Shown: positions 12,061-28,033, numbered from the stretch's first letter. The stretch: DNA of 32,000 bases from Breoghania sp. L-A4 (GCF_003432385.1 NZ_CP031841.1:4103549-4135548); one strand, 5' to 3'. Program-made: numbers and translations. Notes: a model not told the origin generated them from the letters alone.

Positions 12061-12070
12061 CCACGGACAT

Positions 12071-12110
12071 CCCTCACCCCAACCCTCTCCCCATGGGAGA
12101 GGGGGCGGAT
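12071..12110. repeat. REP-like element, family A
   Basis: CCCTCACCCCAACCCTCTCCCCATGGGAGAGGGGGCGGATGCGG. Nearly identical to 17028-17063, and its GGGGGCGGAT(A/G)CGGC tail matches 7303-7318. Confidence 0.75.
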
Positions 12111-12156
12111 GCGGCCAGTTTCTTGGTTTTTTCAACGAATAATATTTCCCCGCGAC

Positions 12157-13056
12157 TCACGGCATCGCCAGAAAGCGGCGCACCAGCGCGACGAAGGCCT
12201 CGGGTCGCTCCTCGTGCGGCAGGTGACCGGCGTCGGGCAGGATCACCGACCAGCAATCGGCCAGCCGCATCTGGATGTTGACCGAGTTCTTCACCGGCAG
12301 CACGCCGTCGCGCGATCCCCAGACCGACAGCACCGTGTGCCGCAATTCCGGCAGGCGCTTCTGCAGGGCGCCTTCGGAGAACTGGCGCAGGGTCTTGAGA
12401 AAGGCGCGCTCGCCATGATCGCGCAGCAGCAGGCCGTAGCAGTGATCGACCAGCGCCGCGTCGGGCACAGTGGCGGCGTAGGATTTTCTCAATTTGGAGC
12501 GGAAGATCGCCTTGCCGGTGCCGTGCCGGCGCAACAGCCCCGCGACCGCCCAGCGGATCAGCCCGCTGCGCACCAGCTTCTCGATTGAATGGGCGCCGCC
12601 GGCGATCCCGACGCTGTTGACGATGATCAGCCGGCCGACGAGATCCGGCGCGCGCAGGGCCATGGTGATCGCCACCGCCGCGCCGAAGGAACTGCCCGCC
12701 ACGTGGACCCGCGCGATCCGCAACGCGGCGCACAGCGCGATGATCCTGCCGGCGATGGCGTCGAGCGAATAGTCCTCGCCGGTTTTCGACGAGCGGCCGT
12801 AACCGGGCATGTCGACAGCCACCACCCGATGGCTTTGCGACAGCGGCGCGAAGACCGCCTGCCAGGTGGTCATGCACAGCGGGATGCCGTGCAGCAGGAG
12901 GATCGTCTCGCCCTCACCGGCCTCGCGATAGCAGATCTCGAAGCCGTCCAGGCTCACGGTCTGGGCATGAGGGTACATCTCGTCGCGGAATCCCCCCGCG
13001 TGGAGATCGGTCTTGGCGACCCGCGATCCGGAAAGATTGCGCGGCAGGAACATCAT
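12157..13056 (-). CDS. Alpha/beta-fold hydrolase (catalytic motifs intact)
   Basis: 299 aa. HG oxyanion motif (ILLLHGIP), nucleophile elbow GSSFG (VAGSSFGAAVA) and C-terminal DAGHLPHEERPE. The start ATG overlaps the upstream stop (TAATG). Confidence 0.85.
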   Translation of the reverse strand: MMFLPRNLSGSRVAKTDLHAGGFRDEMYPHAQTVSLDGFEICYREAGEGETILLLHGIPLCMTTWQAVFAPLSQSHRVVAVDMPGYGRSSKTGEDYSLDAIAGRIIALCAALRIARVHVAGSSFGAAVAITMALRAPDLVGRLIIVNSVGIAGGAHSIEKLVRSGLIRWAVAGLLRRHGTGKAIFRSKLRKSYAATVPDAALVDHCYGLLLRDHGERAFLKTLRQFSEGALQKRLPELRHTVLSVWGSRDGVLPVKNSVNIQMRLADCWSVILPDAGHLPHEERPEAFVALVRRFLAMP

Positions 13057-14795
13057 TACCCCCTTTGCGCCGCCTGCGGCGCGGCGACGCCTTCGCGCCT
13101 GAGAAAGCCGCGCAGCACATCGTTGAAGGCCTCGTGCATCTCCCAGTTCATGAAATGCGCGCCGCCGCGCATCAGCGCCAACTCGCTGCCCGCAATGGCG
13201 CGCTGCAGCGCGTCTGCGTGATGCAGCCGCACCAGCCGGTCCTGCTCACCATGGATGATCAGCGTCTCGCAAGCGATCTCCGACAGCGGGTGTGCGGGCC
13301 GGTGCGTGTTCCCCGCCAGCGTCTGGGCGGAAAACGACGCCGCGTCCTGGCGGTTGACCCGGTAAAACGTCTTCAGCTTGTAGAGCTCGTCGGCCCTCTC
13401 GCCCCGATAGTCCTCGGAGAACACCCAGGGGATCGTCTCGTCGAACAGCGCCTGCATGCCCTCGCGCGCAGCCTTCTCCCGCCACGCAGCCGTGGTTCTC
13501 AGGATCAGATCGTCGGCCGTCTCGTAAGCCGAGACCAGCACCAGCCTGCCGGCGAGATCCGGGCGCAGCAACGCCACCTGCTGGGCGATCAGCCCGCCCA
13601 GCGCCAGCCCGACGATGCTGACGCCACGCTCGCCGAGATGATCAAGCAGCGCGATGACATCGCCGGCCATGTCCCGCGTGTTCGCGCTGTCGGGCAGCGC
13701 GGAACTGCGCCCCGCGCCACGGTTGTCGACGGTGATCAGCCGGAAGGCGTCGTTGAGGGTGCCGCACTGGCGCGACCAGAAGCTGGTGTCCGTGCCCACC
13801 GGACAGAGGAACAGCACCGGCGGGCCCTCGCCTTCGGTGCGGTAGCACAGCGAGCCGCCGTGGCTGAGCGGCAGCCGCTCGGCATGCACCTTGCGGTAGA
13901 AATGATCGAAGATGTTGGCGACAAGCGAGCCGCGGTCGGGGATGCTCTCGAGCACCTCGCTGGGATCGTAGTGCGTCATGCCGCCATCGAGATAGTCGTT
14001 CTCGTAGCGGTGGGTGTAGGGATCGAACTGGAAGATGTAGGGAATGGCGCGCGGCTTGCGGCGCTCAAGCAGGATCAGCACGACCTCGCTCGCCACCAGC
14101 GAGGCCGCCATCAGGCAGGCGGAGGCGATGGATGGGCCGGTGCCGCGGAGAAAGTCGGTGTTGGAGTCGCCCTTTGACACATCGAAGTAGCTGATGTGCG
14201 CCAGCTTCGGCACGACGGAACAGGCGTAGCGCAACTGCTTTTCCATTGGCGGCATGTCGTCCGTGATGCCGCAGAAGGTCTCCATGTCCATGCCGTCGGG
14301 ATCGAACACCTGCATGGAGGCGCTGAAGCCGACGGGCGAGCCCATGAGGATGTAGAGCCCGCGGGCGCGCGCCGCGCGATGCAGCCTCAGGTGATCCTCG
14401 ATGGCGTAGAAATCGATGGCGTCGATGCAGATGTCGGCATCGCCCAGAACGGCATCGGCGTTGGCGTCGCAGAATTTCTCCGCGAACGTCCGCACGCTGG
14501 CGTCGGGATTGATGGCCAGGATCTCACGCTCCACCACATCGACCTTGCGCGCGCCCACGGTGGTGCTGTCGGCGCCCGCCTGGCGGTTGATGTTGGCGAG
14601 CTCGAAGGTGTCGGGATCAACGATATTGAAGTTGCCCACGCCCATGCGCGCCAGCGTCACAAGACAGTTGGAGCCGATGCCGCCGGTGCCGACGACGGCG
14701 ACGGTGGCGCGCGCGAGCCGCTCCTGCTCGGCCTCGCGCAGGATGCCGATGTTGCGCGAAAAGGATTCCCGGTACGTCTCGCTCAGCGCCATCAT
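13056..14795 (-). CDS. ThiF/MoeB/HesA-type E1-like adenylyltransferase fused to a degenerate alpha/beta-hydrolase domain
   Basis: Real start is ATG 14795 (MMALSETY; RBS GGGAGGG; ATGA overlap with the upstream stop). N-terminal domain: VAVVGTGGIGSNCLVTLARMGVGNFNIVDPDTFELANINRQ. C-terminal domain aligns to ABH but has CPVG in place of HG and GLALGG in place of GxSxGG. The Asp (HGEQDRLV) and His (GGAHFMNWE) are retained. The upstream 166 aa of the track ORF is an Arg-rich shadow overlapping the next gene. Confidence 0.85.
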   Translation of the reverse strand: MMALSETYRESFSRNIGILREAEQERLARATVAVVGTGGIGSNCLVTLARMGVGNFNIVDPDTFELANINRQAGADSTTVGARKVDVVEREILAINPDASVRTFAEKFCDANADAVLGDADICIDAIDFYAIEDHLRLHRAARARGLYILMGSPVGFSASMQVFDPDGMDMETFCGITDDMPPMEKQLRYACSVVPKLAHISYFDVSKGDSNTDFLRGTGPSIASACLMAASLVASEVVLILLERRKPRAIPYIFQFDPYTHRYENDYLDGGMTHYDPSEVLESIPDRGSLVANIFDHFYRKVHAERLPLSHGGSLCYRTEGEGPPVLFLCPVGTDTSFWSRQCGTLNDAFRLITVDNRGAGRSSALPDSANTRDMAGDVIALLDHLGERGVSIVGLALGGLIAQQVALLRPDLAGRLVLVSAYETADDLILRTTAAWREKAAREGMQALFDETIPWVFSEDYRGERADELYKLKTFYRVNRQDAASFSAQTLAGNTHRPAHPLSEIACETLIIHGEQDRLVRLHHADALQRAIAGSELALMRGGAHFMNWEMHEAFNDVLRGFLRREGVAAPQAAQRG

Positions 14796-15601
14796 AACCC
14801 TCCCGCGGCAACCGCGCGCCGCTCTTGCTGGCGCGACGCGAAGCGCGCGCGGAACCGCGCGCCATAGGCGTTCAGACGCGCCGCCGAGCTCCTGCCGACA
14901 GGCACGAAGACGTCGCCCGCCGCAATGTCCAGTTTCGAGCGGACAAAATCGTTGATCCGGCGATCGGGCGCTTGCGGCAAGGGGTTGTAGAAGAAGTCGC
15001 ACTCGTTGCGCAGGATCAGGTTTTCGGGCTCGAAGGTCACATCCGGGTCGTATTTGTCGACCACCGCGCGGGCCACGCGGATCACGTCCGGCGGCGGGAT
15101 GTCCCGCGCGTTGGGATAGACATGCGCGAGCTTCCCCAGCATGGAGTAGACCAGCGGGCTTTGCGAAATCGAGGTGACATAGACCGTGTCGCCGTGCCGC
15201 GCGACGAGACCGGAGATCTGTTCGAGAAGGGCGAGAAACAGGAACGACAGAAGCCCCGTGCCCTGGATGTCGCGCGAGAAGTTCATCGAACACAGATGCA
15301 CGATGGTGCCGTTTATGCCGCTGCCCGGCCCGCAGTCGAAGTCCGTGTCGCAGCCGGCGATGCCCTTGAAGACGCCGTCCTCGAAGACAAGCGCCAGCGC
15401 GGTTGCGAGATACAGCGGTGAGATCTTGAAGATGGCGCGCATGCGCGCGACGTGGCTCCCGTCCCAGCCGCGCGACAGCGTGGCGATGGTCAGGATCTCG
15501 TCCTCGAGCGCACGCAGCTCATTGCGATACGCCTTGGCGTCGCGCAGGATCACCAGCTCGTAGCGGCGAAACGGGATCCTTTCCGCGCCCGTAAACATCA
15601 C
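14792..15601 (-). CDS. Hypothetical protein (weak GNAT-like acyltransferase pattern)
   Basis: 269 aa with normal amino-acid composition, coupled at both ends. SRDIQGTGLLSFLF loosely resembles the GNAT acyl-CoA motif. I recognise no family with confidence. Confidence 0.6.
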   Translation of the reverse strand: MMFTGAERIPFRRYELVILRDAKAYRNELRALEDEILTIATLSRGWDGSHVARMRAIFKISPLYLATALALVFEDGVFKGIAGCDTDFDCGPGSGINGTIVHLCSMNFSRDIQGTGLLSFLFLALLEQISGLVARHGDTVYVTSISQSPLVYSMLGKLAHVYPNARDIPPPDVIRVARAVVDKYDPDVTFEPENLILRNECDFFYNPLPQAPDRRINDFVRSKLDIAAGDVFVPVGRSSAARLNAYGARFRARFASRQQERRAVAAGGL

Positions 15602-16872
15602 GCCTCTCCGCTCAGATGGCGCACCGCATCGTCCAGACAGCGGGCCGCGCCGGCCACATAGGCTTGCCGCCAGCGCGGATCGTCGGGGCAGAAAGCCCGC
15701 GTCATCCGCGCCCGCGCCCTGGCGAGCAACGCCGGGTCATGCGCGAAATGCCGGTGGGCGATGGTGTCCAGCCGCAGCGCCAGGAAGGTGCGCAGCGCAG
15801 GCCCCGTGCCGCACTCGAAGGTAACGCCGCAGAGATCGCGGCATGAGATCCCGCGCATCAGACCGGTGAGCAGATCGCCACGCACGCTGTAGAGCGCGTC
15901 GTCGCCCGCGTGGCTCATGGTGATCGGCGTCCGGAAGATCGCCTCGGCGCCTGCGACATCGGCCGCGGTGGCGAGCAACTGGCATTGACCGTAGCTCCCG
16001 ATGCCGGAATGCAGGTCAACGAAAATCGCCTTGTCCAGCGCGCCTTCGCCAAGCATGCCCGAGAGATAATCCGCAAGCGCGCGGATCTCGGGCTGCACCG
16101 CGTCACCGCCGTAAAACAGCCCGTCTGGGTTGACGAACTGACCGCCCGCCAGCGCCTCCTTCAGCGCGGATATGCCGCCCAGGCCCATCAGCCTGAGAAA
16201 AAAGACCGGCATCCAGAACGCGCCGAGCGCGCGGAATTTTCCCACGCTGTTGACCCAGTCATCGATGGCGGCGGCGCGGGCGTCCACCGTCCGGTCAACC
16301 GCTGAATGGTCGAGGACATTGCGGTTGAGATCGACATTGGCGCCGTTCACCCGGCGGCGCGCCTTCATGCCCGCGGGATTGATGACGTGCACCACGAGCA
16401 CGTGGACGGTTTCGAGGCTCCACGCCCGCGCGCGCAGAAACGCGATCTGCGCGGCGCTGCCGCAATAGCCCTCGATGCCGTGCAGCCCGCTGGTGACGAC
16501 CAGCTTGCGCGGCGACGTCAGATCGCCCGCGTGCGCCACGTCGATGACGTCATCGGCGCCGCCGATGGGCAGGTGATCAACGCGCAGATCCAGATCGCGG
16601 CAAAGATCCAGGAACGCCGCGCGGGCGGCCTCAAAGGTGGGGTGGAAATCGGAAACCTCATCGCCTGTGGTCCGGGGCGCGCCTCGCGCATGTCGGATCG
16701 CCGAAACCGCCGCTCCAACCGCGCTGTCATCCCGGCCTCCGAGCCGGGACCCAGTAGCCGCCGGCCCCTCGGCTCTTGCCGTTGGTTCTCGGCCTCGTTG
16801 TGGCGACGGGTCATCGCGCGGGCTGTCGGTTACTGGGTCCCGGGTCTCGCCTTCGCTCGCCCGGGATGACAA
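15598..16872 (-). CDS. DUF2817 / M14-like zinc carboxypeptidase-fold protein; start codon unresolved
   Basis: The homology-like part begins near 16650 (SDFHPTFEAARAAFL). Zn motifs are VVTSGLHGIEGYCGS (HxxE) and FVDLHSGIGSYG. The nearest upstream in-frame canonical start is TTG 16872. The track start at 17220 reads through the REP repeats. Confidence 0.7.
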   Translation of the reverse strand: MSSRASEGETRDPVTDSPRDDPSPQRGREPTARAEGPAATGSRLGGRDDSAVGAAVSAIRHARGAPRTTGDEVSDFHPTFEAARAAFLDLCRDLDLRVDHLPIGGADDVIDVAHAGDLTSPRKLVVTSGLHGIEGYCGSAAQIAFLRARAWSLETVHVLVVHVINPAGMKARRRVNGANVDLNRNVLDHSAVDRTVDARAAAIDDWVNSVGKFRALGAFWMPVFFLRLMGLGGISALKEALAGGQFVNPDGLFYGGDAVQPEIRALADYLSGMLGEGALDKAIFVDLHSGIGSYGQCQLLATAADVAGAEAIFRTPITMSHAGDDALYSVRGDLLTGLMRGISCRDLCGVTFECGTGPALRTFLALRLDTIAHRHFAHDPALLARARARMTRAFCPDDPRWRQAYVAGAARCLDDAVRHLSGEA

Positions 16873-17168
16873 TCGGGGCGAAGCCTGGACATCGCGGGAT
16901 GACTGCGCAGGGTGGTGTTCGCTCGCCCGGAGGTCAGCGCCCGACAAACCTCTCCCATGGGGAGAGGTCGGCGCGCATGCGCCGGGTGAGGGGTGAAAAA
17001 CTCGACGTATCCAGGAGAGCGCTGATCCCCTCACCCCAACCCTCTCCCCATGGGAGAGGGGGCGAGCCGTTCGCCGCGAAGCCACTTGCGGTGACCCTGC
17101 TCCAAGGACAGCGAGGGACCGCCTCCCCGACAACGCCTCACCCCACACTCTCCCCATGGGAGAGGGGG
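16725..17168. repeat. Mosaic of at least two REP-like repeat families inside the operon
   Basis: Family B is an inverted pair: TGTCATCCCGG..CCGGGACCCAGTAGCC (16725-16759) and GGTTACTGGGTCCCGG..CCCGGGATGACA (16828-16871), plus a partial copy around 16885-16935. Family A copies lie at 16949-16993 (inverted), 17027-17063 and 17137-17168. Confidence 0.8.
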
Positions 17169-17206
17169 TGCCGCCATCCGTCGTGGGGCGCGCGTCCGGT
17201 TGTGCC

Positions 17207-18463
17207 TCACGCCACCGCATCGGCCGGCTCCCGAATGTAGGCCTCGGGCGGCGTGCGTTTCCCCGCCTCCATGGCGTCGGTGTCCACCACCAGCATGACC
17301 TTGTCGTACTTCGTCGGCGCGTTGATCCACTTCATCTCGTCCTCGAGATGATGCCAGTCGCGCGTCATGATGGTTTGCAAATCGTCGATGCTCTTCACGT
17401 CGCCCTTCCACTGCTGCGAGCGGTTGTAGAAGGCGTCGTCGTGGCAGCTCTTCACGCAGGCCAGGCACTCGATGCAATCGTCGGGGCGGACCGAGACGGC
17501 GGGGCCCTTGGGCAGCCGCGCCAGCACCCCCTTGGGACAGACGTAGACGCAGTCGTAGCAGCTGGTGCATTTGACCGGATCGATGATCGGCTCGAAGTGG
17601 CTGCGGTAATCGCCCCTCGTGATCCAGTGGCGCGGCGTGGTCTTGTAGATCGTCGAGCTGCCGCAGCCGTCGAGCGAAATCAGCAGCACCACGCCGCCAA
17701 TCGTCGCCGTCCAGATGGCGAATTCGCTCAAGGTGAAGTCGTGGAACAGGCCGACCAGCGCCAGACCGGCGACGCCGACGCCGAAGTGGCTCAGCGTCTT
17801 CAGCCACAGTCGCTCCTCGGGCAGCACGTCCCACAGGGCGAACCAGGTGAGATGGAACAGCAGGATCAGCCCCATGGTGATCAGCGTGTAGGCGGGGAAG
17901 AAGAAGATCAGAAAGAAGATCGTCATGGCGTAGACCAGCGCCGTGGAGACCGCCTGCTCCATGCGGTCCCAAAAGCCGAACTGGGCGCGGGTCATCTCCG
18001 AGGTGCGGCGGTAGTTGCCGGCGATATAGGCGGGCAGATCATCGAAATGGGTCGGCCCCCACACGAGCTTGAAGCCGGTGCGCGCCTGCACCTCCTTGGC
18101 GTTGACGCCGGGCGCGGCATAGGGCGGCGCGATGATCCGCCGCGCCAGCACCTTGTCCTTGATGCCGGAGACGTTGATGGCGTCGATGATGTCGAATTCG
18201 TTGAACTCGTTCATGCCGGCCGCGCACCAGACGTTGGAGCCCTTGGAGTTGGCGACGATCAGGTAGCAGTCGATGCCGGAGAGGCGCTTGAGCAGCCGGT
18301 GCACGGTGAGCGTGTAGTTGCCGCTCAAGAAGACCGGCGAATGCTCGTCGGGGCGGCCGATCTCGCGCAGGCCCAGCTCGCAGGGGAAATTGAAATGCCG
18401 GAACAGCACGTGGAAGATCTCGTAGAACCTGAGCTTGATCATGCCCCAGATCCGGCCCGCCAT
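17207..18463 (-). CDS. Fused HgcA-like corrinoid domain / 4-TM domain / HgcB-like 2x[4Fe-4S] ferredoxin
   Basis: 418 aa. The N-terminal region aligns by eye to the HgcA cobalamin-binding domain. Matches are SPVFLSGNYTLT, the cap helix SKGSNVWCAAGMNEF, and GFKLVWGPTHFDDLPAYI (compare GF.V.WGPVRAEDLPAYL). Four hydrophobic helices span residues 171-264. Cys clusters are CTSCYDCVYVCP and CIECLACVKSC. The RBS GGGGAGGAAG lies inside the end of the upstream gene. Confidence 0.8.
   Translation of the reverse strand: MAGRIWGMIKLRFYEIFHVLFRHFNFPCELGLREIGRPDEHSPVFLSGNYTLTVHRLLKRLSGIDCYLIVANSKGSNVWCAAGMNEFNEFDIIDAINVSGIKDKVLARRIIAPPYAAPGVNAKEVQARTGFKLVWGPTHFDDLPAYIAGNYRRTSEMTRAQFGFWDRMEQAVSTALVYAMTIFFLIFFFPAYTLITMGLILLFHLTWFALWDVLPEERLWLKTLSHFGVGVAGLALVGLFHDFTLSEFAIWTATIGGVVLLISLDGCGSSTIYKTTPRHWITRGDYRSHFEPIIDPVKCTSCYDCVYVCPKGVLARLPKGPAVSVRPDDCIECLACVKSCHDDAFYNRSQQWKGDVKSIDDLQTIMTRDWHHLEDEMKWINAPTKYDKVMLVVDTDAMEAGKRTPPEAYIREPADAVA
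17444..17569 (-). other. Two CX2CX2CX3C [4Fe-4S] ferredoxin motifs (HgcB-like module)
   Basis: C299-C309 CTSCYDCVYVCP and C330-C340 CIECLACVKSC. There are no cysteines in the 78-aa tail after C340. Confidence 0.8.
17672..17953 (-). other. Predicted 4-helix transmembrane region of the HgcAB-like protein
   Basis: The four helices are AVSTALVYAMTIFFLIFFFPAY, TLITMGLILLFHLTWFALWDVL, LKTLSHFGVGVAGLALVGLF and FAIWTATIGGVVLLISL. Judged by eye, without a TM predictor. Confidence 0.6.
18212..18235 (-). other. Cap-helix motif NVWCAAGM (putative Co-ligating Cys80 codon at 18224..18226)
   Basis: I checked the codons base by base: AAC GTC TGG TGC GCG GCC GGC ATG. The published HgcA signature is N(V/I)WCA(A/G)GK. 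Here the terminal Lys is replaced by Met. Confidence 0.75.
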
Positions 18464-18464
18464 G

Positions 18465-19118
18465 TCACTTCCTCCCCACGATGAGCTGGAAGGAGGACAT
18501 CGGCAGTCTCTTCGTCTCCTCGATGGAAAAGCCCGCCGCCTCGATGACGCCGCGCAGGTCCTTGATGGGGAAGCAGGCCCGGCGCAGGATGGCGAACTGC
18601 GGCACCCACATGATCGCCATGACCACCCGGTAGAGCGCCCGCAGCGCCCTGTTCTCCGGCCACACCTCGTCGGCGATCATGATGCGCCCGCCGTCTTTCA
18701 GGATCGTGCGGCAATCGCGGAAGATGTAGTCGAGGTATTCGCGTGACAGCTCGCCCACCACCATGGTGGAGACGATCGCGTCGAGGCTTTCGGGCTCGAA
18801 ATATTTGGGCAGGTCGGTGACGCTGTCCTTGATGATGGTGAAGCGGTCGGCGCAGTCGTTCTTCGCGATCGTCTTGCGGCACTCCTTGAGCATGCTCTCG
18901 GAGATGTCCATGCCGGTGACGGTGGCGCCCTTGTTCACGCATTTGACGCCCAGCGAGCCGGTGCCGCAGCCGATGTCCAGCACCCGGTCGCCGGGGCGGA
19001 CGCGGTTCGCGATCTCGGTCTTGATGCGGTCGATCTTGCCGCCGGTCAGAAGCTTGACCGACCAGTCGTAACGCTCGGGCGCGTATTCGACCCAGACCAT
19101 CCAACTGTACATCAGCAT
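18465..19118 (-). CDS. Class I SAM-dependent methyltransferase
   Basis: 217 aa. Motif I VLDIGCGTGSLGVKCVNKGATVTGMDISESML. RBS GGGAGA. The stop lies 1 nt before the next start. Confidence 0.85.
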   Translation of the reverse strand: MLMYSWMVWVEYAPERYDWSVKLLTGGKIDRIKTEIANRVRPGDRVLDIGCGTGSLGVKCVNKGATVTGMDISESMLKECRKTIAKNDCADRFTIIKDSVTDLPKYFEPESLDAIVSTMVVGELSREYLDYIFRDCRTILKDGGRIMIADEVWPENRALRALYRVVMAIMWVPQFAILRRACFPIKDLRGVIEAAGFSIEETKRLPMSSFQLIVGRK

Positions 19119-19146
19119 CGTCGTTCTCCCGGACAGACGCGGCGCT

Positions 19147-20604: not shown

Positions 20605-20742
20605 GGTCACACTCCCTCACGCCACACCTGGGACAAGGGGACCCGCCGCCGCTCCCAGCCCGGGTGCGGCGTGATGACGTCCCTTGCGATGGATCCCGTC
20701 GGGCAACCCGTTTCCGCCCGGTCAATTCCGGGGCAGGCTTGC

Positions 20743-22050
20743 CTAATCGAGTATCAGTTCGGACAGTCCGAAGTTGACCTCGCCCTCCCTAGGCGGGCGC
20801 AGGTCGTCCTCGGTATAAAAGCGCTCCCACACCGCGTTGGAGTAAAGCTGGCCCTTGCGCGTCAGATGCACGTCGTACTCGCCGTCGACCAGATAGTCCT
20901 CGGCCGCCAGTTCATCGATGATCTCGCCGTAGACCAGCTTCATCGGCACGCCGAAGCGCGCCTGGAAATCGTCCTTGTAGACGTTGCCGACCTTCAGCCC
21001 CCGGATCATCACCCGGCGCATTTCCTGGTCCTTGGACAGATAGGTGGAGAAATCCAGCACCGGCTCGCCGCGATTGATGCGCGCGATGTAGTCCTTGATG
21101 TCGGTGATGTTGGTGTACATGAACTCTTGGATCGCCGACTTGGACGACACGCCGAAACCGATCATCGGCCACGTGCGCCAGTAGTAGTCGAGGAAGCGGC
21201 AATAGATCCTGCACCGGTCGGGATGGTAGTAGCCCGAGGTGCTGCCCGTCACATAGCCGGCCGCCTCCAGCAGGTTGAAGGCGGTCAGCGCCATGGCCTT
21301 TTCCTCGGCGATCTTCGGCAGCTTCATGCCGCGCGCCACGATCCACTTGTGGTAGGCGGTGTTGGTCCAGACCTCGAGCGGATAGGCGGTGATGCAGGAA
21401 AACTCGAGATCGATGGCGCGCCTGACCGAATCCTCCCAGATCTCGCTGGTCAGCCCGATGAGCGGATAGATCAGATCCACATTCACATGGGTGAAGCCGG
21501 AGTTGCGGATGATGTCGACGGCCTTGTCGATATCCTCCCGGCCATGCGGCCGGTTGGTATCCTTGAGGATCTTCTCATCAAAGCTCTGGATGCCGATGGA
21601 AAAGCGGTTGAAGCCGGCGTCAAACAGCGCGTCGACCTTCTCCTGCTCGACGCTCCTGGGGTCGAACTCGATGGCGATTTCCGCGTCCGCCGCCACATCG
21701 AACGTGCCGCGCACGGCCTCCAGGATGCGGATCAGCTGCTCCGACGACAACAGCCCGGGCGTGCCGCCGCCGAAATAGATCGCCTTGATCTCGAAGCGCG
21801 GAAACACCGGATTGTCCGGAAACCGCTCGATCTCGACGCACAGCGCCTGCACGTATTGCTCGCGCAGGTCGAGCTTTGTGTTCACGTAGACGGTGTAGTC
21901 GCAGAAATGGCACTTGGTCGAGCAGAACGGGATATGGATATAGATCGATGCGTCCTGCATCTTGAAGAAATCGTTGAACTCGCTGTAGGTATATTTGAAC
22001 GGATACGTATGAATGTTACGTCTGATATATTTCTCTGATGCATCGGACAT
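20743..22050 (-). CDS. HemN-like radical SAM protein (oxygen-independent coproporphyrinogen oxidase family / class C radical SAM methyltransferase type)
   Basis: 435 aa. IYIHIPFCSTKCHFCDY (CX3CX2C), IYFGGGTPG, and a C-terminal HemN_C-like region. RBS GGAGGTG. Confidence 0.85.
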   Translation of the reverse strand: MSDASEKYIRRNIHTYPFKYTYSEFNDFFKMQDASIYIHIPFCSTKCHFCDYTVYVNTKLDLREQYVQALCVEIERFPDNPVFPRFEIKAIYFGGGTPGLLSSEQLIRILEAVRGTFDVAADAEIAIEFDPRSVEQEKVDALFDAGFNRFSIGIQSFDEKILKDTNRPHGREDIDKAVDIIRNSGFTHVNVDLIYPLIGLTSEIWEDSVRRAIDLEFSCITAYPLEVWTNTAYHKWIVARGMKLPKIAEEKAMALTAFNLLEAAGYVTGSTSGYYHPDRCRIYCRFLDYYWRTWPMIGFGVSSKSAIQEFMYTNITDIKDYIARINRGEPVLDFSTYLSKDQEMRRVMIRGLKVGNVYKDDFQARFGVPMKLVYGEIIDELAAEDYLVDGEYDVHLTRKGQLYSNAVWERFYTEDDLRPPREGEVNFGLSELILD

Positions 22051-22089
22051 GGATCACACCTCCGCTCAAGAGCTGAATTCGAAACGGTT

Positions 22090-23595
22090 TCAGGCAAGCA
22101 GACGCAAATGCTCGAACGACGTGTCCGGGCTGCCGGCATGCTTGCGATTGTTGGGCATCATCGGGCGGCCGCAGGAGACGAAGAGCGCGCTCAGGCGGCC
22201 CCGGTCGCGTGCGCGCAGGGCCTCGCCGCCACGCGCGATGATCCGGACCGCGCTGCGCACGAGCGCGAACTGGAAGGCGCATTTGGCCGGATCCGGCGCG
22301 TTGATGTCGCCGGTGGCGATGGTGTTTTCCTGCTTGCAGCCGCCACCGCAGATGTAGCGGATGGAGCAGCGCGAGCACACCGGCTGCGCGTTGACGCCCG
22401 TCCGCCAGGCCGCCACTTTGGCGTCATCAACGCCCGCGTGAAAGTCGCCGACCTGGAAGCCCTCGTCGCCCACCAGCCGGTGGCACGGCATGATCGACTT
22501 GTCGGGCGAGAAGGTGAAATAGTTGCGCCCGCCGGAACAGAAGCCGTTGGCGAACTCGCCGTCCAGGATCATCCGCATCACCGTTTCCACCTCGAGGATC
22601 CCCTTGAAGCGGTTTGCGGGCGTGAACAGATCGAGATACCGGTCGTGCAGCGCTTCGAACTCGGCCTCGATCTTGGCGTTGTAAGGTGCCTGCCGGTCCT
22701 CCAGATCCGCGGTGTCGAAGGCCGCGTCGCCATAGACGGCGGCGTGGTTTTCCTCCGCCACCGCGGCCGGGAGAATCTGGAACCAGTCGAAAATGTTCAT
22801 GTCGTAGAGATGCCGCATGTCCTCGACCAGCGAGGAGTCGGGATAGGGCACGTAGGTCATCCGCGCCACCAGCGTGATGTCCTCGGACGCCGCGCGCACC
22901 TGCTCGCAGTTGCGCGCGATCGCCTCCTGCGAACCGCGCCCCGACTTGCGCGGCCGGTTGCGGTCGTGCGTCTTCGCGCCGCCGTCGATGGACACGGACA
23001 CGATGAACCGGAACCGGTGAAACAGCGACAGCTCGCGCCCGGTCAGCTTCGTCGTCAGGTTGGTGGAGACCCGGTAGATGAACTCGATGCCCAGCCGCGC
23101 GCGCATCTCCAGCGAGCGCGCGCACAGCTCCTCGATGACCGGAAAATTCATCAAGGGCTCGCCGCCGAAAAACTCGAACCGCACGGTCTCGCCCGGGCGT
23201 GTCTTCTCCTCGATGAAGGCGACAATGGCGTCGACGTCCACGTCCTTCGACAGCTTGCCCTTGAGCCGGCCGTAGTCGCCGCCTTCGGCGAAACAGTAGG
23301 TGCAGCCCAGGTTGCAGAAGGCGGTGAGATTGATGTTCAGCGCCAGATTGGCGCCGGCCAGCGGATCCGCCTTCGACAGCGCGCGGGCGTTGTAGGGCGC
23401 CAGCACCCCGGAGGCCCGCAGGCTCTCGAGTTCCGCCTCGGCCTCTTCCGGCCAGACCGGGTTGTCGCGGGTCAACTGGTCGCGCAGGGCGTTCGAGATC
23501 GTGAAAAGACGATGGGACTCACTGTCCAGTAAAACGGTGCCGCCGGTTTCCGGATCGACAGTGACGATCTCAAAATTTCGGGGCTCAATGCCCAT
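22090..23595 (-). CDS. Radical SAM/SPASM-domain maturase with N-terminal PqqD-like (RRE-like) extension
   Basis: NLTAFCNLGCTYCFAEGGDYG (CX3CX2C, at about residue 105). SPASM region CSGGRNYFTFSPDKSIMPCH ... CSRCSIRYICGGGC (CX2CX5CX3C). N-terminus FEIVTVDPETGGTVLLDSESHRLFTISNALRDQL resembles PqqD/RRE strands. I prefer ATG 23595 (RBS TGAGG) over GTG 23607. Confidence 0.85.
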   Translation of the reverse strand: MGIEPRNFEIVTVDPETGGTVLLDSESHRLFTISNALRDQLTRDNPVWPEEAEAELESLRASGVLAPYNARALSKADPLAGANLALNINLTAFCNLGCTYCFAEGGDYGRLKGKLSKDVDVDAIVAFIEEKTRPGETVRFEFFGGEPLMNFPVIEELCARSLEMRARLGIEFIYRVSTNLTTKLTGRELSLFHRFRFIVSVSIDGGAKTHDRNRPRKSGRGSQEAIARNCEQVRAASEDITLVARMTYVPYPDSSLVEDMRHLYDMNIFDWFQILPAAVAEENHAAVYGDAAFDTADLEDRQAPYNAKIEAEFEALHDRYLDLFTPANRFKGILEVETVMRMILDGEFANGFCSGGRNYFTFSPDKSIMPCHRLVGDEGFQVGDFHAGVDDAKVAAWRTGVNAQPVCSRCSIRYICGGGCKQENTIATGDINAPDPAKCAFQFALVRSAVRIIARGGEALRARDRGRLSALFVSCGRPMMPNNRKHAGSPDTSFEHLRLLA

Positions 23596-23682
23596 GGCGT
23601 GCCTCACACTTTTCAGGTGTTCGACCGAGCGAGCAGACGCGCTGCAAAGGGGCGCGTTTGAAAAACTAATTTATATATTTAC

Positions 23683-23698
23683 AACCTTAAGTTAGGTT
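23683..23698. promoter_or_regulatory. AT-rich near-palindrome AACCTTAAGTTAGGTT (candidate operator) upstream of the radical SAM operon
   Basis: The arms AACCT / AGGTT flank a TAAGTT centre. It lies 88 nt upstream of the SPASM gene start, inside a stretch of roughly 40% GC. Confidence 0.25.
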
Positions 23699-23822
23699 AT
23701 ACTGATGATGCAGCTTAAAATTGCTTCTGTCAATCTGGCACGGTTAAAATTGGCGGTGACGCTTCTGCCAGCGTTTCATCTATATGAAATAGATAAGCTT
23801 TTAGAGAAACCTCCCCGCTGGA

Positions 23823-23840
23823 GCCGCGCCCGGGCGCGGC
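23823..23840. promoter_or_regulatory. Perfect 18-nt GC palindrome GCCGCGCCCGGGCGCGGC
   Basis: Read directly from the sequence. It lies at the edge of a GC-rich 180-bp core embedded in the low-GC divergent intergenic region. No adjacent U-tract. Confidence 0.3.
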
Positions 23841-24013
23841 ACGTGCGACCGCATCTGGAGCGTGTTCGGGCGGCCGCGGCGGCGGGCGGTTGCAGTACGC
23901 GATGAAGGCCCCGGCAAGGCGGCACCCGCGGTGCGCGCGCGAGACGTCCGGCCCGCGTTCGGCCACCCGTGCGCGACGGTTTCCCGTCAGGCGACAACCA
24001 TGGGTTGACAAAA

Positions 24014-24184
24014 TCACGGATTCTCGGAAATGTTGTGTTTTCGAGAATTCACGAGACAGACACCCGGGACTGCTGAGAAAATTCTCATAACAACTATCGA
24101 TGAGAAGAAATTATCCGTTTCCTCGACAAGACATACAGGCCACTGCAAATGGACGCGATTTAAACCATGCGCTAAGCTTGCCAT
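24014..24184 (-). CDS. Candidate small ORF (56 aa), possible but unproven precursor or leader peptide
   Basis: MASLAHGLNRVHLQWPVCLVEETDNFFSSIVVMRIFSAVPGVCLVNSRKHNISENP. ATG 24184 is preceded by GAGG with a 5-nt spacer. Same strand as the radical SAM operon and about 420 nt upstream of it. Low-GC codon usage unlike the host genes. No homology recognised. Confidence 0.15.
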   Translation of the reverse strand: MASLAHGLNRVHLQWPVCLVEETDNFFSSIVVMRIFSAVPGVCLVNSRKHNISENP

Positions 24185-24330
24185 GATCGCCTCGCCATTT
24201 GACATGTCCTTGGCGCTTTGCCGCGCCGCCCGAAAGGCGCTCCGGCCGCGATCAGCCGCCGCGCCCCATGCCGGCGCCGGCTTCAAGAGAGATCGCATCA
24301 CGTCAGGCCTCGGCAGAAGGCAGTCGCGCA

Positions 24331-26652
24331 ATGAACCGGATCATCTGGGCCGACACGCTGTCCGACTACGCGCTGGCCGCGAGCGCCCATCGCAGGCTGG
24401 GTGCGTTTTGCGACGCCGCCGCCTGCTATCCGCTGTTGAGTTCAGCCTCCGGGGCCGCCCGGCTGCAGGCCGCCTTGCGTCCCTACGGGAGTGCTCTGAC
24501 CGCCTTTTCCGAGATTGTGCGCGGCGCGGATCCGGCGGACCGCGGCCGGTTTCTGGCCGCGCAGCTCGAATGGAGCGATGCCACCCCGATCAGCCTTGCC
24601 CCCGACGCCCCGCCGTCCGCTCTGCTGGACGCGCTCATGCGCTCGCTCGAGACCGGCCGCCCGATCGTCTTCGACGCGGCGGCGACGGGCGCCAAGAGGC
24701 CGCCCGCGCCGTCGCCCAGCATCGACGGCGCCAGGCTCATGATCGTGAACCGCAACAGCGCCCTGTCGCTGCCCGCCGCCCTCTATGCCGACGCCACCGG
24801 CAGGCGGCTGATCACGCTGGAGACGCTGGAGGACCTGGAACCGCAACTGTCCGGACAGCGCCCGGCGTCGGTCATGCTGGCGTCTGACCGCCACGATTTC
24901 ACCAAGAGCCGCCTGCAGGCGCTGCTGGCATGGAGCCAGGGCGCGGACGGGCCGGCCGATTTCGGAATTCTGTCCGGACGCTCGGCGAAGCAGGCGTCGG
25001 GCATCGTCGCGCGGCTGCTGATGCATCGCGATTTTCATGCCGGCGGCCAGAGCCTGATGCGGCCGCCGGATCTCGAACCGATCCCGGCCGCGGCAATGAC
25101 GCCGATGGAATATTACGTCATCGGCGCGCACGGCAACGAAATGCATCTCGATCACATGGACGACGAGGTGCTGTGCGGCGCCAACGCCGCGCCCGATCCC
25201 TCCGGCTTCGATTGCACGCGCAACTGCCCCTATGACAACCGCTTCGCGGCCCGCGAGATCCCCGCCCACGCATTACTGTTGCTCAGCTGCGACGCCTTCA
25301 CCCTGGCCGATGGCCTGGCGCCGCCCGGCGTCAATCTGCTTATGAGCCTTCTCGACGGCATGGCCGCGAGCGTGCTCGCGCCCTTCAAGCACGTCCAGTT
25401 CAACGAAGGCCTCATTCTGCTGGCCGGCGCGCTGCTCAAGGGCGGATTTTCGCTCGGCGGCATCGCCCGGCGGCTGAACGAGAGGGCGCGCAACGGCACG
25501 CTGCCCGATCCCGCCTATCTGGTGCTCGGCGATCCGGAACTGACCATGGCCGCGCAAGACCCCATCGTTGCGGCGCGGGTCGCGCCCGAGCCGGGCGGGC
25601 TTGTCCTGGAGCTGCGCTCGAACGGCGCGCCGGCGCTCGAAACCACCATCGCGTATGATCCCGACGATACAGACGGACCCTTGCCGCCGCTAGCGCTGGA
25701 GCCGCTCGGCGAGACGCTGCGCGATCCCGACATCTTCTACACGCTGACCCCGCGCCCCGCCGCCCGCGCGCTGACAATCACGCTGTTCGCCCGCGACCGG
25801 CTCCCCAAGGGCCCGCTGCTGTTTCGCGTCGAGCAGGCCGCGCGCCTGGGGCCGGTCGACCATGACGACATCCTGGGCCGGCTGAACCGCCTGTCGCTGA
25901 TCTCCGAGATCGGGCTGGACAACCGCGCGGCAAGGTGCGCGAAAGCCAGCATCCTGTCGTTCCTGCGCGCAGCCGCCGGCTTTCCCCGCCCGGTCGAACT
26001 GGCCATGGGCCAGTCGATGGTGCGCAACATCGATGCGCTCGTGGCTGCCGATTTCAAGAGCCTGCGCCGCGCCTCCCTGCGCGCCATGCTCGAGGAACTG
26101 GAACACAAGCGGGTCTGGATCAGCCAGCGCTACGCCCATGCCTATCCGCACATCGCGCGCGCGGGCCCGCGGGCCGACGGCGTCTGTCCGCATTGCGCAG
26201 AGCACACCACCTGCTGGCGCTACGAAGACACCTGCCTGCATTTCCCGCCGCGCAGGCTGTGGGTGTGCAACCAATGCGGCATCATCGCCGACGTTCCGGC
26301 CGAGCCCACCGCCACCATCGCGCTCGCCACCGTCGCGGCCCTGCCCGCGCCCACCCAACGGCAGACCTTCACCATCGCCAATTGCACGCAGGACCCGCTG
26401 GGCATCGGCTATTGCCTGCATTTCAACGCCTGGGGACAGCTCGGCATCAAGGCGGACGGCAACATCGGCGAGGCGACGCTGGCGCCGGGCGAGGAGATCG
26501 AGCGCACCGCCACCTTCCACTTCCCCGAGGGCTTTCCCGACGACGTCGTCTCCATGCAGTTCTTCGCCATGACCGACGCGATGGATCTGTATTTCCTCAG
26601 CCAGAAGATGCGCGCCCAGGTGCGCCACGTCCAAAGAGGTCAGACGCCATGA
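24331..26652 (+). CDS. Large orphan protein with caspase/CHAT-like His-Cys pattern and a C-terminal zinc ribbon
   Basis: 773 aa from ATG 24331, where GC3 rises sharply; the TTG 24199 extension has low GC3. YYVIGAHGNEMH (His267) and HALLLLSCDAFT (Cys320) are followed by LLDGMAASVLAPFKHVQFNEGLILLAGALLKGGFSLGGIARRL, an order that resembles the CHAT domain core. CPHC...CNQC lies at 26185-26277. Confidence 0.6.
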   Translation: MNRIIWADTLSDYALAASAHRRLGAFCDAAACYPLLSSASGAARLQAALRPYGSALTAFSEIVRGADPADRGRFLAAQLEWSDATPISLAPDAPPSALLDALMRSLETGRPIVFDAAATGAKRPPAPSPSIDGARLMIVNRNSALSLPAALYADATGRRLITLETLEDLEPQLSGQRPASVMLASDRHDFTKSRLQALLAWSQGADGPADFGILSGRSAKQASGIVARLLMHRDFHAGGQSLMRPPDLEPIPAAAMTPMEYYVIGAHGNEMHLDHMDDEVLCGANAAPDPSGFDCTRNCPYDNRFAAREIPAHALLLLSCDAFTLADGLAPPGVNLLMSLLDGMAASVLAPFKHVQFNEGLILLAGALLKGGFSLGGIARRLNERARNGTLPDPAYLVLGDPELTMAAQDPIVAARVAPEPGGLVLELRSNGAPALETTIAYDPDDTDGPLPPLALEPLGETLRDPDIFYTLTPRPAARALTITLFARDRLPKGPLLFRVEQAARLGPVDHDDILGRLNRLSLISEIGLDNRAARCAKASILSFLRAAAGFPRPVELAMGQSMVRNIDALVAADFKSLRRASLRAMLEELEHKRVWISQRYAHAYPHIARAGPRADGVCPHCAEHTTCWRYEDTCLHFPPRRLWVCNQCGIIADVPAEPTATIALATVAALPAPTQRQTFTIANCTQDPLGIGYCLHFNAWGQLGIKADGNIGEATLAPGEEIERTATFHFPEGFPDDVVSMQFFAMTDAMDLYFLSQKMRAQVRHVQRGQTP

Positions 26653-27935
26653 CGACACCCGACGCGGCCCAACGGCCCGACAGCTTCATCGCCATACTGG
26701 ATCCCGGCACCGCGCACTTCCGCTACCTGCGCAGCGCGCGCGAGATGGGGTACAAGACCATCGTGATGAGCGCCGATCCGGACGCCTATCGGGCGGAGCA
26801 AGCGCTCTACAAGCAGCGGGTTCCGGAATACGACGAGGCCTGGACCGATGTCTTCGTGCCCTACGACTCGCCCGATCCGGACACGCTGACGCGTCTTCTG
26901 GAGCCCTATCGCGGGCGCATCGCCGGGGTAATCGCGGGCGACGAATTCCCCGTCCCGGCCGCAGCAAGGCTCGGCCGCGCGCTCGGCTTCAACTACGCCA
27001 CGCCCGAGGACGCGGACTGCCAGCGCGACAAATCCGCGATGAAGCGCCGGCTGATCGAGCGCGGCGTTCCCACCGCGCGCTACCGCACGGCCGAAAGCCT
27101 CCCCGACGCGCTCGCAACCTGGGAGGCGTTCGGCGGCGACTGCATGGTCAAGATGGTCGACTACGCCTCGAGCTTCAACGTCTTCCGCGTGCGCAGCCGT
27201 GAGGAGCTGGAGAACGCCTGGTACACGATCGTCGAGAACCGGCGCGGGCTGCAGGTCGCCTTCGATCTGGCGCAGAAGGTGATCGTGGAGGAGTTCATCG
27301 GCGGGCGGGAACTGACCGTCGAGGGTTATGTGCAGGACGGCCGCGTCGAGGTGCTCAACTTCTGCGAGAAGATCACCAACGAGAATTTTCTCGTCATCGG
27401 CCACTATATCCCCGCCCGCGTCACCAAGGCGGAAAGCGACGCGCTCGCCGGCATCGCCCGGCAATGCGTCGCGGCGCTTGGCGTCCAGAACACCATCTTC
27501 CACGCGGAAGTGCACCTGCGCGACGGCCAGCCCTTCATCATCGAATGCGCGGCGCGCACGCCGGGGCAGCATTCGGTCGAGATCATCGAGCGCACCTATG
27601 GCATCGATCTGATGACCATCAACATCGATCTGGCGATGGGCCGGTTCGTCAGCACCCGCAGGCGCCCGCCCGAGGCCTGGCACGCGCTGCTGGCGCTCTA
27701 CGCCACTGAGAGCGGGACGCTCAAGGAAATCAAAGGGCTGGAGGCGCTCAAACAGCGCGAGGATCTGGTCTGGCTGGCGCTGGACGTGGCGCCGGGCCAG
27801 CCGGTGCGCAAGCTGGAAACCTTCAAGGACCTGTGCGGCCTGGCGGTGGTCGGCGGCCCCGCGCCCGAGGACGCCGAAGCCGGGTACTGCTGGATCCGCG
27901 AAAACCTCGTCTTCGTCGTCGAGGACGGCGCATGA
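26649..27935 (+). CDS. ATP-grasp domain ligase (L-amino-acid-ligase / carboxylate-amine ligase type)
   Basis: 428 aa from ATG 26649, with an ATGA overlap on the upstream stop. Contains DKSAMKRRLIERGVPTARY, VIVEEFIGGRELTVEGYV and FHAEVHLRDGQPFIIECAARTPG. Confidence 0.85.
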   Translation: MTTPDAAQRPDSFIAILDPGTAHFRYLRSAREMGYKTIVMSADPDAYRAEQALYKQRVPEYDEAWTDVFVPYDSPDPDTLTRLLEPYRGRIAGVIAGDEFPVPAAARLGRALGFNYATPEDADCQRDKSAMKRRLIERGVPTARYRTAESLPDALATWEAFGGDCMVKMVDYASSFNVFRVRSREELENAWYTIVENRRGLQVAFDLAQKVIVEEFIGGRELTVEGYVQDGRVEVLNFCEKITNENFLVIGHYIPARVTKAESDALAGIARQCVAALGVQNTIFHAEVHLRDGQPFIIECAARTPGQHSVEIIERTYGIDLMTINIDLAMGRFVSTRRRPPEAWHALLALYATESGTLKEIKGLEALKQREDLVWLALDVAPGQPVRKLETFKDLCGLAVVGGPAPEDAEAGYCWIRENLVFVVEDGA

Positions 27936-27963
27936 CGCGGGGTAATGCGCGACGATGACAAAA

Positions 27964-27988
27964 CGGGCGGGCCATACCGACCCGCCCG
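27964..27988. terminator. GC hairpin between convergent genes
   Basis: CGGGCGGG (27964-27971) pairs with CCCGCCCG (27981-27988); 9-nt loop. Confidence 0.45.
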
Positions 27989-27998
27989 GTCCGTAACG

Positions 27999-28025
27999 GG
28001 GCCTCCCGGTTGCCCCGGGAGGCCC
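27999..28025. terminator. GC hairpin between convergent genes (bidirectional terminator candidate)
   Basis: GGGCCTCCCGG (27999-28009) pairs with CCGGGAGGCCC (28015-28025), an 11-bp perfect stem with a 5-nt loop. It lies 9 nt beyond the stop of the small minus-strand gene. Confidence 0.5.
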
Positions 28026-28033
28026 TGATCACG

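Follow-up and report, generated by a model that had tools for sequence, protein, structure and literature searches.

The mercury field has yet to explain what microbes gain from carrying hgcAB and what purpose the fused HgcAB-like proteins serve. Breoghania sp. L-A4 has been reported as the only aerobic organism with a fused hgcAB (Lin et al. 2023; PMC10083202), and its locus raises the question of what the genes gathered around this fusion do together. We analysed 32,000 nucleotides of this genome (GCF_003432385.1, NZ_CP031841.1:4103549-4135548; G+C approx. 66%), hereafter 'the window', from whose first letter all positions are counted. An earlier note on this DNA had proposed that positions 12157-27935 hold an undescribed gene cluster, in which three radical S-adenosylmethionine (SAM) enzymes, a SAM methyltransferase and a fused HgcAB-like corrinoid protein accompany E1-like, M14-like, ATP-grasp and 'CHAT-like' genes. 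We find a real, co-inherited and uncharacterised gene cluster that occurs in at least four phyla, spans about 12157-29082 in the window and includes the gene of a small peptide, which is the likely substrate of the system.

The gene set recurs across phyla

Related loci were recovered through the HgcAB-like protein, a 773-aa protein that we call bigJ and a GNAT-fold protein, giving a neighbourhood sample of 13 loci; scans of genome contigs yielded two loci and scans of metagenome contigs four, and the presence of each gene was recorded in a tblastn matrix. The 13 loci belong to Alphaproteobacteria, Acidobacteriota, Chloroflexi and Actinobacteria, and carry the set in the same order. Their sources are metagenome-assembled genomes (MAGs) of Rhizobium, Telmatospirillum, an alphaproteobacterium, Thermoanaerobaculia, Chloroflexi and Streptosporangiaceae, together with Bradyrhizobium sp. 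Ai1a-2 and several metagenome contigs. The core set consists of three radical SAM genes, the methyltransferase CpaM, the HgcAB-like protein, the GNAT-fold protein, a fusion of an E1-like domain with an alpha/beta-hydrolase (ABH) fold (E1-ABH), a serine hydrolase and an M14-like or M20 peptidase; bigJ and an ATP-grasp ligase also belong to it. Indeed, wherever the HgcAB-like protein shows at least 46% identity, CpaM, the GNAT-fold protein and E1-ABH lie beside it, and the three radical SAM genes are found in all such loci save L010 and the truncated L014. The free hydrolase is near-universal. Two halves can be distinguished in the cluster. In six loci (L001, L002, L008-L010 and L013) they abut or overlap and their order is kept, and in four others (L003, L005, L007 and L012) they are interleaved.

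Since 13 loci of four phyla share the set in one gene order, its grouping goes beyond chance. Co-occurrence in other genomes, the lack of which the earlier note had named as grounds for giving up the genes as one unit, was thus looked for and found. Some loci add transporters (EamA, MFS and ABC) and a SARP-type BTAD regulator. The full-text literature outside subscription-only papers yielded no description of the cluster, its peptide family or its product, and neither this literature nor PADLOC offered a characterised pathway with such a combination, in agreement with the earlier note. Among the anti-phage systems of PADLOC, only generic matches to E1 and viperin-like radical SAM domains were obtained, with no system-specific protein, and a defence-system reading was rejected on this ground.

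A conserved 73-aa peptide belongs to the cluster

The right edge of the cluster had been set too early, at 27935. Just beyond it lie a 73-aa peptide gene (28034-28255, minus strand), the overlooked substrate candidate, and a 99-aa protein gene (28783-29082, plus strand). The peptide, MAKISDLHQSTHDALLSTLESYHEELARISAAEERLQLQRGIVKATAAAELQGMSDKLRVSNEHVGALVAACW, is annotated at NCBI as a hypothetical protein, and no such family exists in Pfam or NCBIfam. Its gene has a Shine-Dalgarno sequence (GGAGGA) 6 nt before the ATG and is followed at its 3' side by an intrinsic-terminator-like hairpin with a T-run (27964-27988, minus strand), made of an 11-bp stem with nine GC pairs and the tail TTTTGTCATC. 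The composition of the peptide suggests a helical leader; this leader bears His23 within a YHE motif, and the C-terminus reads ...VAACW.

The family emerged from a comparison of the small called genes of further loci, and 15 members were returned when 1.84 billion representative proteins were searched exhaustively. Across an alignment of 22 sequences (search members plus locus copies), His23 is invariant; position -2 is Cys in 20 sequences and Asn in two, and the terminal residue is Trp in 19, Leu in two and absent from one. The entire leader is conserved, as far as the final three residues, and no variable core is seen. Homologues lie beside the cluster in L005 and L011 (two copies each, in tandem and divergent), L006, L008, L009, L010 and L012. 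The peptide is present in 7/7 loci with bigJ and flanks covered, plus the Chloroflexi locus, and the family shares the cluster with the SPASM maturase described below in the window and seven related loci. A precursor open reading frame 5' of the first radical SAM gene was sought in six loci, and nothing conserved was found there. These sequence features make the 73-aa protein a candidate precursor or scaffold peptide, and it is probably the substrate of the SPASM maturase, so that the earlier suggestion of a peptide as the substrate of the system seems likely to be right.

The Chloroflexi MAG locus L006 (JACPQD010000104, 2951-14578) encodes a peptide that ends ...VTVC without Trp, and neither DUF2817 nor M20 is found in range. 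In the same locus, CpaM and the HgcAB-like protein form a fusion of 646 aa; the insertions here are an HFCD flavoprotein and a membrane protein of 170 aa, and a BTAD regulator lies next to the genes.

Three radical SAM enzymes and a separate corrinoid protein

The SPASM radical SAM enzyme (22090-23607, minus strand) possesses both the CxxxCxxC radical SAM core (PF04055, 5e-14) and a SPASM domain (TIGR04085, 49.2 bits; cut-off 27). Its top families are PapB (184.4 bits; cut-off 340), nif11, QhpD (142.9; 453) and SCIFF (134.8; 425) maturases, each of them under its equivalog cut-off, and its nearest solved structure is CteB (5wgg, E 1.5e-30). From these similarities it is of the peptide-maturase type and CteB-like. 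Alignments begin at residue 47 with CteB and at residue 52 with nif11 and QhpD. Upstream of the gene, a sigma-70-like promoter match (23705-23733, minus strand; TTGACA-17-CATCAT, 10/12) is a consensus match only.

The second enzyme (20743-22050, minus strand), HemN-like and of the HemW or class C methyltransferase type, combines Radical_SAM and HemN_C domains. It scores 217.6 bits against HutW/ChuW (cut-off 400), 205.9 against HemW (205.4, hence borderline) and 184 against HemN (325), and an identity as HemN or ChuW/HutW was rejected since both equivalog cut-offs are missed. Its matches among solved structures are HemN (1olt, 7e-37) and the class C methyltransferase NocN (9p2u, 6.7e-26). The cluster motif is CxxxCxxCxY, without the fourth Cys of HemN, a residue that is significant for that enzyme. 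The third enzyme (19147-20610, minus strand) passes the AmmeMemoRadiSam cut-off (TIGR04337, 269.5 bits; cut-off 220), matches the activating enzyme of pyruvate formate-lyase (PFL; 3c8f, 9e-07) and bears a C-terminal extension of approximately 140 aa, for which Pfam holds no match.

A B12-binding Pfam domain was found in none of the three proteins, which bears out the view that no radical SAM enzyme of this cluster has a cobalamin domain of its own. A class B cobalamin-dependent radical SAM methyltransferase was rejected as an identity for the same reason. The sole corrinoid module is therefore the separate membrane protein, as had also been proposed.

That protein, the HgcAB-like fusion (17207-18463, minus strand), matches its NCBIfam model nearly end to end (NF043039, 350.1 bits, cut-off 285; its residues 15-345 align with positions 3-349 of the 350 in the model) and reaches just 144.6 bits against HgcA (NF040863, cut-off 275). 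It is 100% identical to the HgcAB-like protein on record for Breoghania sp. L-A4. Motifs and hydropathy delineate a corrinoid domain, approximately four transmembrane helices and a ferredoxin domain with two CxxCxxCxxxC motifs. No Cys is found in the tail after the second of these motifs; HgcB is said, after Smith et al. in 2015, to be a separate ferredoxin with a C-terminal Cys pair. Against an identity as true HgcA/HgcB stand the score under the HgcA cut-off, the fused ferredoxin and the tail without Cys. The cap helix of HgcA has the motif N[VI]WCA[AG]GK with a conserved Cys (PMC10087281); here it reads NVWCAAGM (residues 77-84, with Cys80), Met replacing Lys, and this helix, including the Cys and the Lys-to-Met change, is kept across all cluster-linked homologues. 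Although fused forms bear the diagnostic motifs, the fused HgcAB isolates assayed to date make no methylmercury (PMC10087281, PMC10083202), and such fusions are treated as non-methylating look-alikes (PMC10087281). Among 72,556 plasmids, the HgcAB-like protein has no match.

CpaM, a corrinoid protein-associated class I SAM methyltransferase (18465-19118, minus strand; NF043040, 253.5 bits, cut-off 180), forms an obligate pair with the HgcAB-like protein: the two genes adjoin or are fused in every locus, with a 1-nt gap here, and two homologues (P0027 and P0096, the latter in L006) are a single polypeptide. NCBIfam already names both proteins from genome context. A distant pair, with approximately 31% identity, occurs in Streptomyces sp. 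CNQ-509 (CP011492; L004, 9336-17252). Its setting is a heavy-metal island that also encodes a P-type ATPase, DUF169, ArsR, a MerA-like reductase, MerR and MerB, flanked by insertion sequence elements, from which the radical SAM and E1 genes are all absent. There, the pair may be a portable methyl-transfer module that serves a mercury context.

Putative carboxylate-directed enzymes and other cluster proteins

The E1-ABH fusion (13056-14795, minus strand) has a ThiF domain (PF00899, 3.6e-43) and approaches the cut-off of PRK08223 (260.4 bits; cut-off 266); its E1 part is nearest to PaaA among solved structures (1.7e-14), followed by MoeB, ThiF and MccB. The nucleophile elbow of its hydrolase fold reads GLALG, and follows the pattern G-x-A/T-x-G in 10/10 homologues, so that the fused ABH is without the nucleophile Ser. 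The free ABH (12157-13056, minus strand; Abhydrolase_1, 1.8e-23) has an intact GSSFG elbow, and GSS[FY]G is found in all homologues; the earlier description of an E1-pseudoABH next to an intact ABH is thus borne out. A beta-grasp partner ending in Gly-Gly (ThiS, MoaD or ubiquitin-like) was sought, and the cluster holds no such gene; the sole small partner ends in Cys-Trp.

The peptidase slot is occupied by DUF2817 in seven loci and by Peptidase_M20 in five (L003, L005, L007, L011 and L012). Such non-orthologous displacement at the same operon position implies that a peptidase step is required. In the window, DUF2817 (15598-~16680, minus strand, 5' end uncertain; PF10994, 3.7e-58) has an M14-like zinc carboxypeptidase/amidase fold, and the zinc-site motifs HGIE and DLHSG can be read off its sequence. 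Two in-frame start candidates exist, a TTG at 16872 within repeat-derived sequence and a GTG at 16539 that cuts off conserved residues; none of four candidate products is present in the public protein collection, and a repeat insertion may have damaged the translation start.

The next gene (14792-15601, minus strand) encodes a 269-aa protein, here named orphC, which has no Pfam or NCBIfam match. Its AlphaFold2 model, built on a 12-sequence alignment (pLDDT 88.5, pTM 0.87), was compared with the PDB by Foldseek, and every top match was a GNAT acyltransferase. According to this model, orphC is a GNAT-fold protein and a marker specific to the cluster, in support of its former 'GNAT-like' label; its invariant residues are H102-x-C104, Q147-S-P149 and R198-x-E200-C201.

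On the plus strand, bigJ (24331-26652) is followed by the ATP-grasp ligase (26649-27935). The AlphaFold2 model of bigJ (pLDDT 86.6) comprises an alpha/beta N-terminal half, a helical region, a zinc ribbon (CxxC...CxxC) and C-terminal Ig-like beta-sandwiches. Searches of Pfam and NCBIfam, with bigJ singly or with each alignment member, found no family even at E=10, a PDB profile search and sub-domain phmmer runs found nothing, and Foldseek against the PDB matched Ig-like domains only. The 'CHAT-like' label therefore could not be confirmed, as no profile or fold match to CHAT or caspase was obtained. The alignment nevertheless shows invariant AHGNEMH, SCD and KH motifs in the N-terminal half, two of which follow beta-strands (YVIGAHG, strand 259-264; LLLSCD, strand 312-317), a placement compatible with a clan-CD His/Cys dyad and suggestive only.

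The ligase is of the L-amino-acid-ligase (LAL) type (ATP-grasp_4, 7.5e-19; LAL_C2, 8.7e-11), with weak DdaF and BacD matches under their cut-offs. bigJ, the peptide and the ATP-grasp gene share one operon in L008, L009 and L010. In L005, bigJ and the ATP-grasp gene end the main operon, with the peptides on the opposite strand. The two genes belong to the same operon in the Thermoanaerobaculia locus, and elsewhere they adjoin the main operon. The ligase module varies between loci. In L012 (12360-15654), ATP-grasp is fused to a class I methyltransferase, a FemAB-like Acetyltransf_6 protein is present as well, and the peptide ends LNW; L007 (16743-20543) holds an ATP-grasp_4/Acetyltransf_6 fusion, CP_ATPgrasp_2 and MFS and ABM proteins.

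The 99-aa protein is possibly a regulator of the cluster. It has a weak ribbon-helix-helix match (RHH_4, E 3.3e-4, under the cut-off), and homologues with approximately 44-55% identity lie beside the cluster in seven loci (L002, L003, L009, L010, L011, L012 and L013). A GntR/FCD regulator follows its gene at 29116-29916, and another is found near L008.

Locus layout and repeat elements

All the open reading frames of the earlier note are present where it had placed them. Its minus-strand gaps (39, 28 and 1 nt) and overlaps (GTGATG, ATGA and TAATG) are exact, as is the ATGA coupling of bigJ and the ATP-grasp gene at 26649-26652. Overall, the single conserved set of that interpretation stands, and its peptide substrate is likely; the CHAT and RiPP recognition element (RRE) labels could not be confirmed, the right edge lies further out, and the peptide itself had been missed.

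Between the HgcAB-like gene and DUF2817 lies a repeat-filled spacer (16681-17206, no strand). It contains a second inverted repeat and a 37-nt palindromic repeat, CCCTCACCCCAACCCTCTCCCCATGGGAGAGGGGGCG, of the repetitive extragenic palindromic (REP)-like kind, in two clear copies (17028-17064 and 17134-17170) and a degenerate third near 16950. Further copies lie at 7272-7308 and, directly past the free ABH gene, at 12071-12107; two of the four are 100% identical. When translated, this repeat gives rise to the recurrent '...PSPMGRG...' strings of spurious open reading frames. In L008-L010, the stop of the HgcAB-like gene overlaps the start of DUF2817, and approximately 70-80 nt separate them in L001 and L002. 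Accordingly, the spacer is a lineage-specific insertion in Breoghania.

The left flank resembles a polyamine-type operon (7477-11210, minus strand), with a saccharopine-dehydrogenase-like gene (7477-9096), a GNAT gene (9145-9702) and an Orn/DAP-decarboxylase-like gene (9714-10844), all on the minus strand. A speF leader is found upstream of it at 10909-11080, as is an ar45 sRNA match at 11089-11210. A tblastx comparison of the flanks returned only noise at the G+C of the window.

A proposed pathway

E1-like enzymes adenylate C-terminal or side-chain carboxylates in proteins and peptides (ThiS, MoaD, ubiquitin, MccA and PaaP), LAL-type ATP-grasp enzymes make acyl-phosphates from carboxylates, and M14 and M20 enzymes cut an amide that adjoins a free carboxylate. 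Taken as a whole, the family chemistries point to reactions at the C-terminus of the peptide. We favour, with a probability of roughly 0.55, a RiPP-like (RiPP: a peptide made by the ribosome and modified after translation) or scaffold-peptide pathway, in which the radical SAM enzymes and a relay from CpaM to the HgcAB-like protein would modify the C-terminus, and carboxylate enzymes would activate, extend or release the product.

In such a pathway, the leader would recruit the enzymes, whose substrate would be the final one or two residues. The SPASM enzyme could introduce a cross-link at the C-terminus, the HemN-like, class C-type enzyme could carry out C-methylation or methylene transfer, and the PFL-activase-like enzyme could abstract a hydrogen. 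In true HgcAB, the methyl group derives from SAM (PMC11588087), and CpaM is accordingly proposed to load the corrinoid, methylating Co(I) in the HgcAB-like protein from SAM. The ferredoxin domain would re-reduce the cobalt, and the Cys-capped methyl-corrinoid would hand the methyl on, either to the peptide or to a cluster in a partner enzyme. Overall, this would amount to a class-B-type methylation divided among separate proteins, a split of the kind that the earlier note had suggested. The E1-like adenylase, the LAL-type ligase, the M14-like or M20 peptidase and the serine hydrolase would then activate, extend or trim the C-terminus.

The most likely outcome would be a small Cys/Trp-derived product that is released, as in mycofactocin, pyrroloquinoline quinone (PQQ) and the pearlins. 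Locus L006, where the peptide ends without Trp, no carboxypeptidase is in range and an HFCD protein has been gained, suggests that removal of the last residue is normally the task of the peptidase; this is one correlative case, and by analogy small-product release is weakly favoured. A further proposal is tentative, with the odds against it: the fused HgcAB-like protein might be the methyl-transfer part of a new kind of pathway that makes a small molecule, possibly a cofactor or antimetabolite, from the C-terminal Cys-Trp of the scaffold peptide. The methyl would run from SAM by way of CpaM to the membrane-bound, Cys-capped corrinoid and on to a substrate readied by radical SAM enzymes without a cobalamin domain; the peptidase would release the product, and the ATP-grasp or E1 enzymes might re-charge the scaffold without tRNA.

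Several observations weigh against the pathway that we favour. L010, whose cluster (JGI Ga0496060_003322, 8395-15804) has the peptide, ATP-grasp, bigJ, CpaM, HgcAB-like, DUF2817, GNAT-fold, E1-ABH and ABH genes, is without all three radical SAM genes. No peptide was found in the fetched range of L002, L003, L007 and L015, four loci in which bigJ is likewise out of range. Two peptides have Asn at position -2, and the SPASM enzyme is kept in L012, so that a Cys thioether is not assured. The N-terminus of the SPASM enzyme, formerly called 'RRE-like', gave no Pfam match to an RRE in residues 1-95 even at E=10, and that label could not be confirmed. In Breoghania sp. L-A4 itself, the 526-nt repeat spacer divides the operon, no ATG, GTG or TTG stands beside the conserved N-terminus of DUF2817, and the window holds no cobalamin riboswitch. 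Finally, the release of a small molecule is deduced from enzyme-family chemistry and the single correlative case of L006.

Alternative explanations

The same peptide and SPASM evidence would suit a classical RiPP, in which a longer modified peptide is made, bigJ is the leader protease, the E1, ATP-grasp, GNAT and peptidase enzymes tailor and an exporter secretes. The placement of bigJ in an operon with the peptide (L008-L010), its invariant His/Cys motifs and the exporters of some loci are consistent with this. However, the peptide has no variable core, being conserved through the leader to its last three residues; the set universally includes a carboxypeptidase or aminoacylase family (M14-like, M20); and bigJ is a putative protease, with no protease profile or fold match. 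We regard a classical RiPP as possible, albeit rather doubtful. A 73-aa tag resembling Pup or ubiquitin, whose C-terminus the E1-like or ATP-grasp enzyme would activate and which bigJ or the peptidase would take off, would account for a helical protein of tag size with a fixed C-terminus. It would also fit the generic E1-E2 defence models that the E1-like domain matches and the ATP-grasp and GNAT amidoligases of the earlier note's analogy. Such tagging is nonetheless most improbable: the cluster lacks a beta-grasp protein, a Gly-Gly or Gln/Glu terminus and any E2 or JAB gene, the PADLOC matches are generic only, tandem divergent copies are typical of precursor peptides, and three radical SAM enzymes with a corrinoid methyl relay would be left without a role.

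Metal or metalloid methylation (of Hg or some other soft electrophile) by CpaM and the HgcAB-like protein, with the other genes making or handling its ligand, is suggested by the cap-helix Cys and the HgcAB architecture, by the mer/heavy-metal island that houses the distant Streptomyces CNQ-509 pair and by a TonB-dependent receptor that adjoins the L010 cluster. Against this stand the score under the HgcA cut-off, the C-terminal tail without Cys, the lack of methylmercury production by the fused HgcAB isolates assayed (PMC10087281, PMC10083202) and the absence of metal-resistance genes from the window and the 13 cluster loci, and we consider it improbable. As for a chance meeting of two unrelated modules, a radical SAM/corrinoid operon and an E1/peptidase operon, the 526-nt spacer that parts the halves in the window might invite the idea, but synteny contradicts it: the halves are contiguous, overlapping or interleaved in relatives, and its likelihood seems negligible.

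Significance

The cluster points to a non-mercury job for a relative of HgcAB, and offers a concrete hypothesis in a cultivable aerobe. It also makes a case for leaving fused HgcAB-like sequences out of hgcA counts in metagenomes. In addition, it brings a precursor-peptide family that is new and whose C-terminal Cys-Trp is fixed, and possibly the first cobalamin-dependent methylation split over a methyltransferase, a corrinoid/ferredoxin membrane protein and radical SAM partners. If the tentative proposal of the fused protein as the methyl-transfer part of such a small-molecule pathway were true, the HgcA family would gain a physiological role, and mercury methylation would be a side reaction of relatives.

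Comparison with known systems

HgcAB shares with the cluster protein a CdhD-type corrinoid domain, the cap helix NVWCAAG with its Cys, although Met follows here where HgcA has Lys, transmembrane helices and two [4Fe-4S] motifs. SAM is the ultimate methyl source of true HgcAB (PMC11588087), as is proposed for the cluster. Unlike HgcAB, however, the cluster protein is a single fused polypeptide, always paired or fused with a dedicated CpaM, and sits in a peptide-modifying cluster, in an aerobe. The radical SAM-SPASM RiPP systems (CteB, PapB, QhpD and nif11) are similar in their maturase, homologous over almost its full length, and in a small precursor gene inside the cluster, at times in tandem. 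They differ in that our peptide has only a C-terminal Cys-Trp and no Cys-rich core, and in that the cluster brings in two further radical SAM enzymes together with a corrinoid relay and with enzymes of the E1, ATP-grasp and GNAT kinds.

Mycofactocin, PQQ and the pearlins (3-thiaglutamate, ammosamides) combine a long conserved leader, chemistry at the C-terminal residue and a dedicated releasing peptidase; MftC and PqqE are the radical SAM-SPASM enzymes of the first two pathways. The cluster nevertheless has no homologue of MftB/D/E/F or PqqB/C, its peptide belongs to a different family, and no domain of the PEARL type (LanB-type peptide aminoacyl-tRNA ligase) is found in any cluster protein. 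It has instead E1-like and ATP-grasp carboxylate activation and, as proposed, corrinoid-dependent methyl transfer. Class B radical SAM methyltransferases and TsrM would resemble it in passing a methyl from SAM through methyl-cobalamin to an unactivated or indole carbon, with radical SAM chemistry, whereas here the corrinoid is on a separate Cys-capped membrane protein with a ferredoxin domain, served by a separate SAM methyltransferase.

With the E1-like, peptide-modifying enzymes MccB (microcin C7) and PaaA (pantocin A), the cluster has in common a ThiF-fold adenylating domain; its E1, in contrast, is fused to a Ser-less hydrolase fold, has no detectable RRE and belongs to the uncharacterised PRK08223 group. 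The predicted amidoligase or peptide-tagging assemblies contain the same kinds of domains (ATP-grasp, GNAT-like, peptidase and E1-like), a likeness that extends to the CP_ATPgrasp_2 and FemAB-like Acetyltransf_6 proteins added in L007 and L012; as far as checked, they are without the three radical SAM enzymes, the HgcAB-like protein and the peptide family. As to AmmeMemoRadiSam, the third radical SAM enzyme passes the TIGR04337 cut-off, but it carries its extra C-terminal extension, and the AMMECR1 and Memo partner genes are absent from the window and the related loci. Set beside these systems, the locus appears as a RiPP-like or scaffold-peptide cluster with an unprecedented, separate corrinoid methyl-transfer module.

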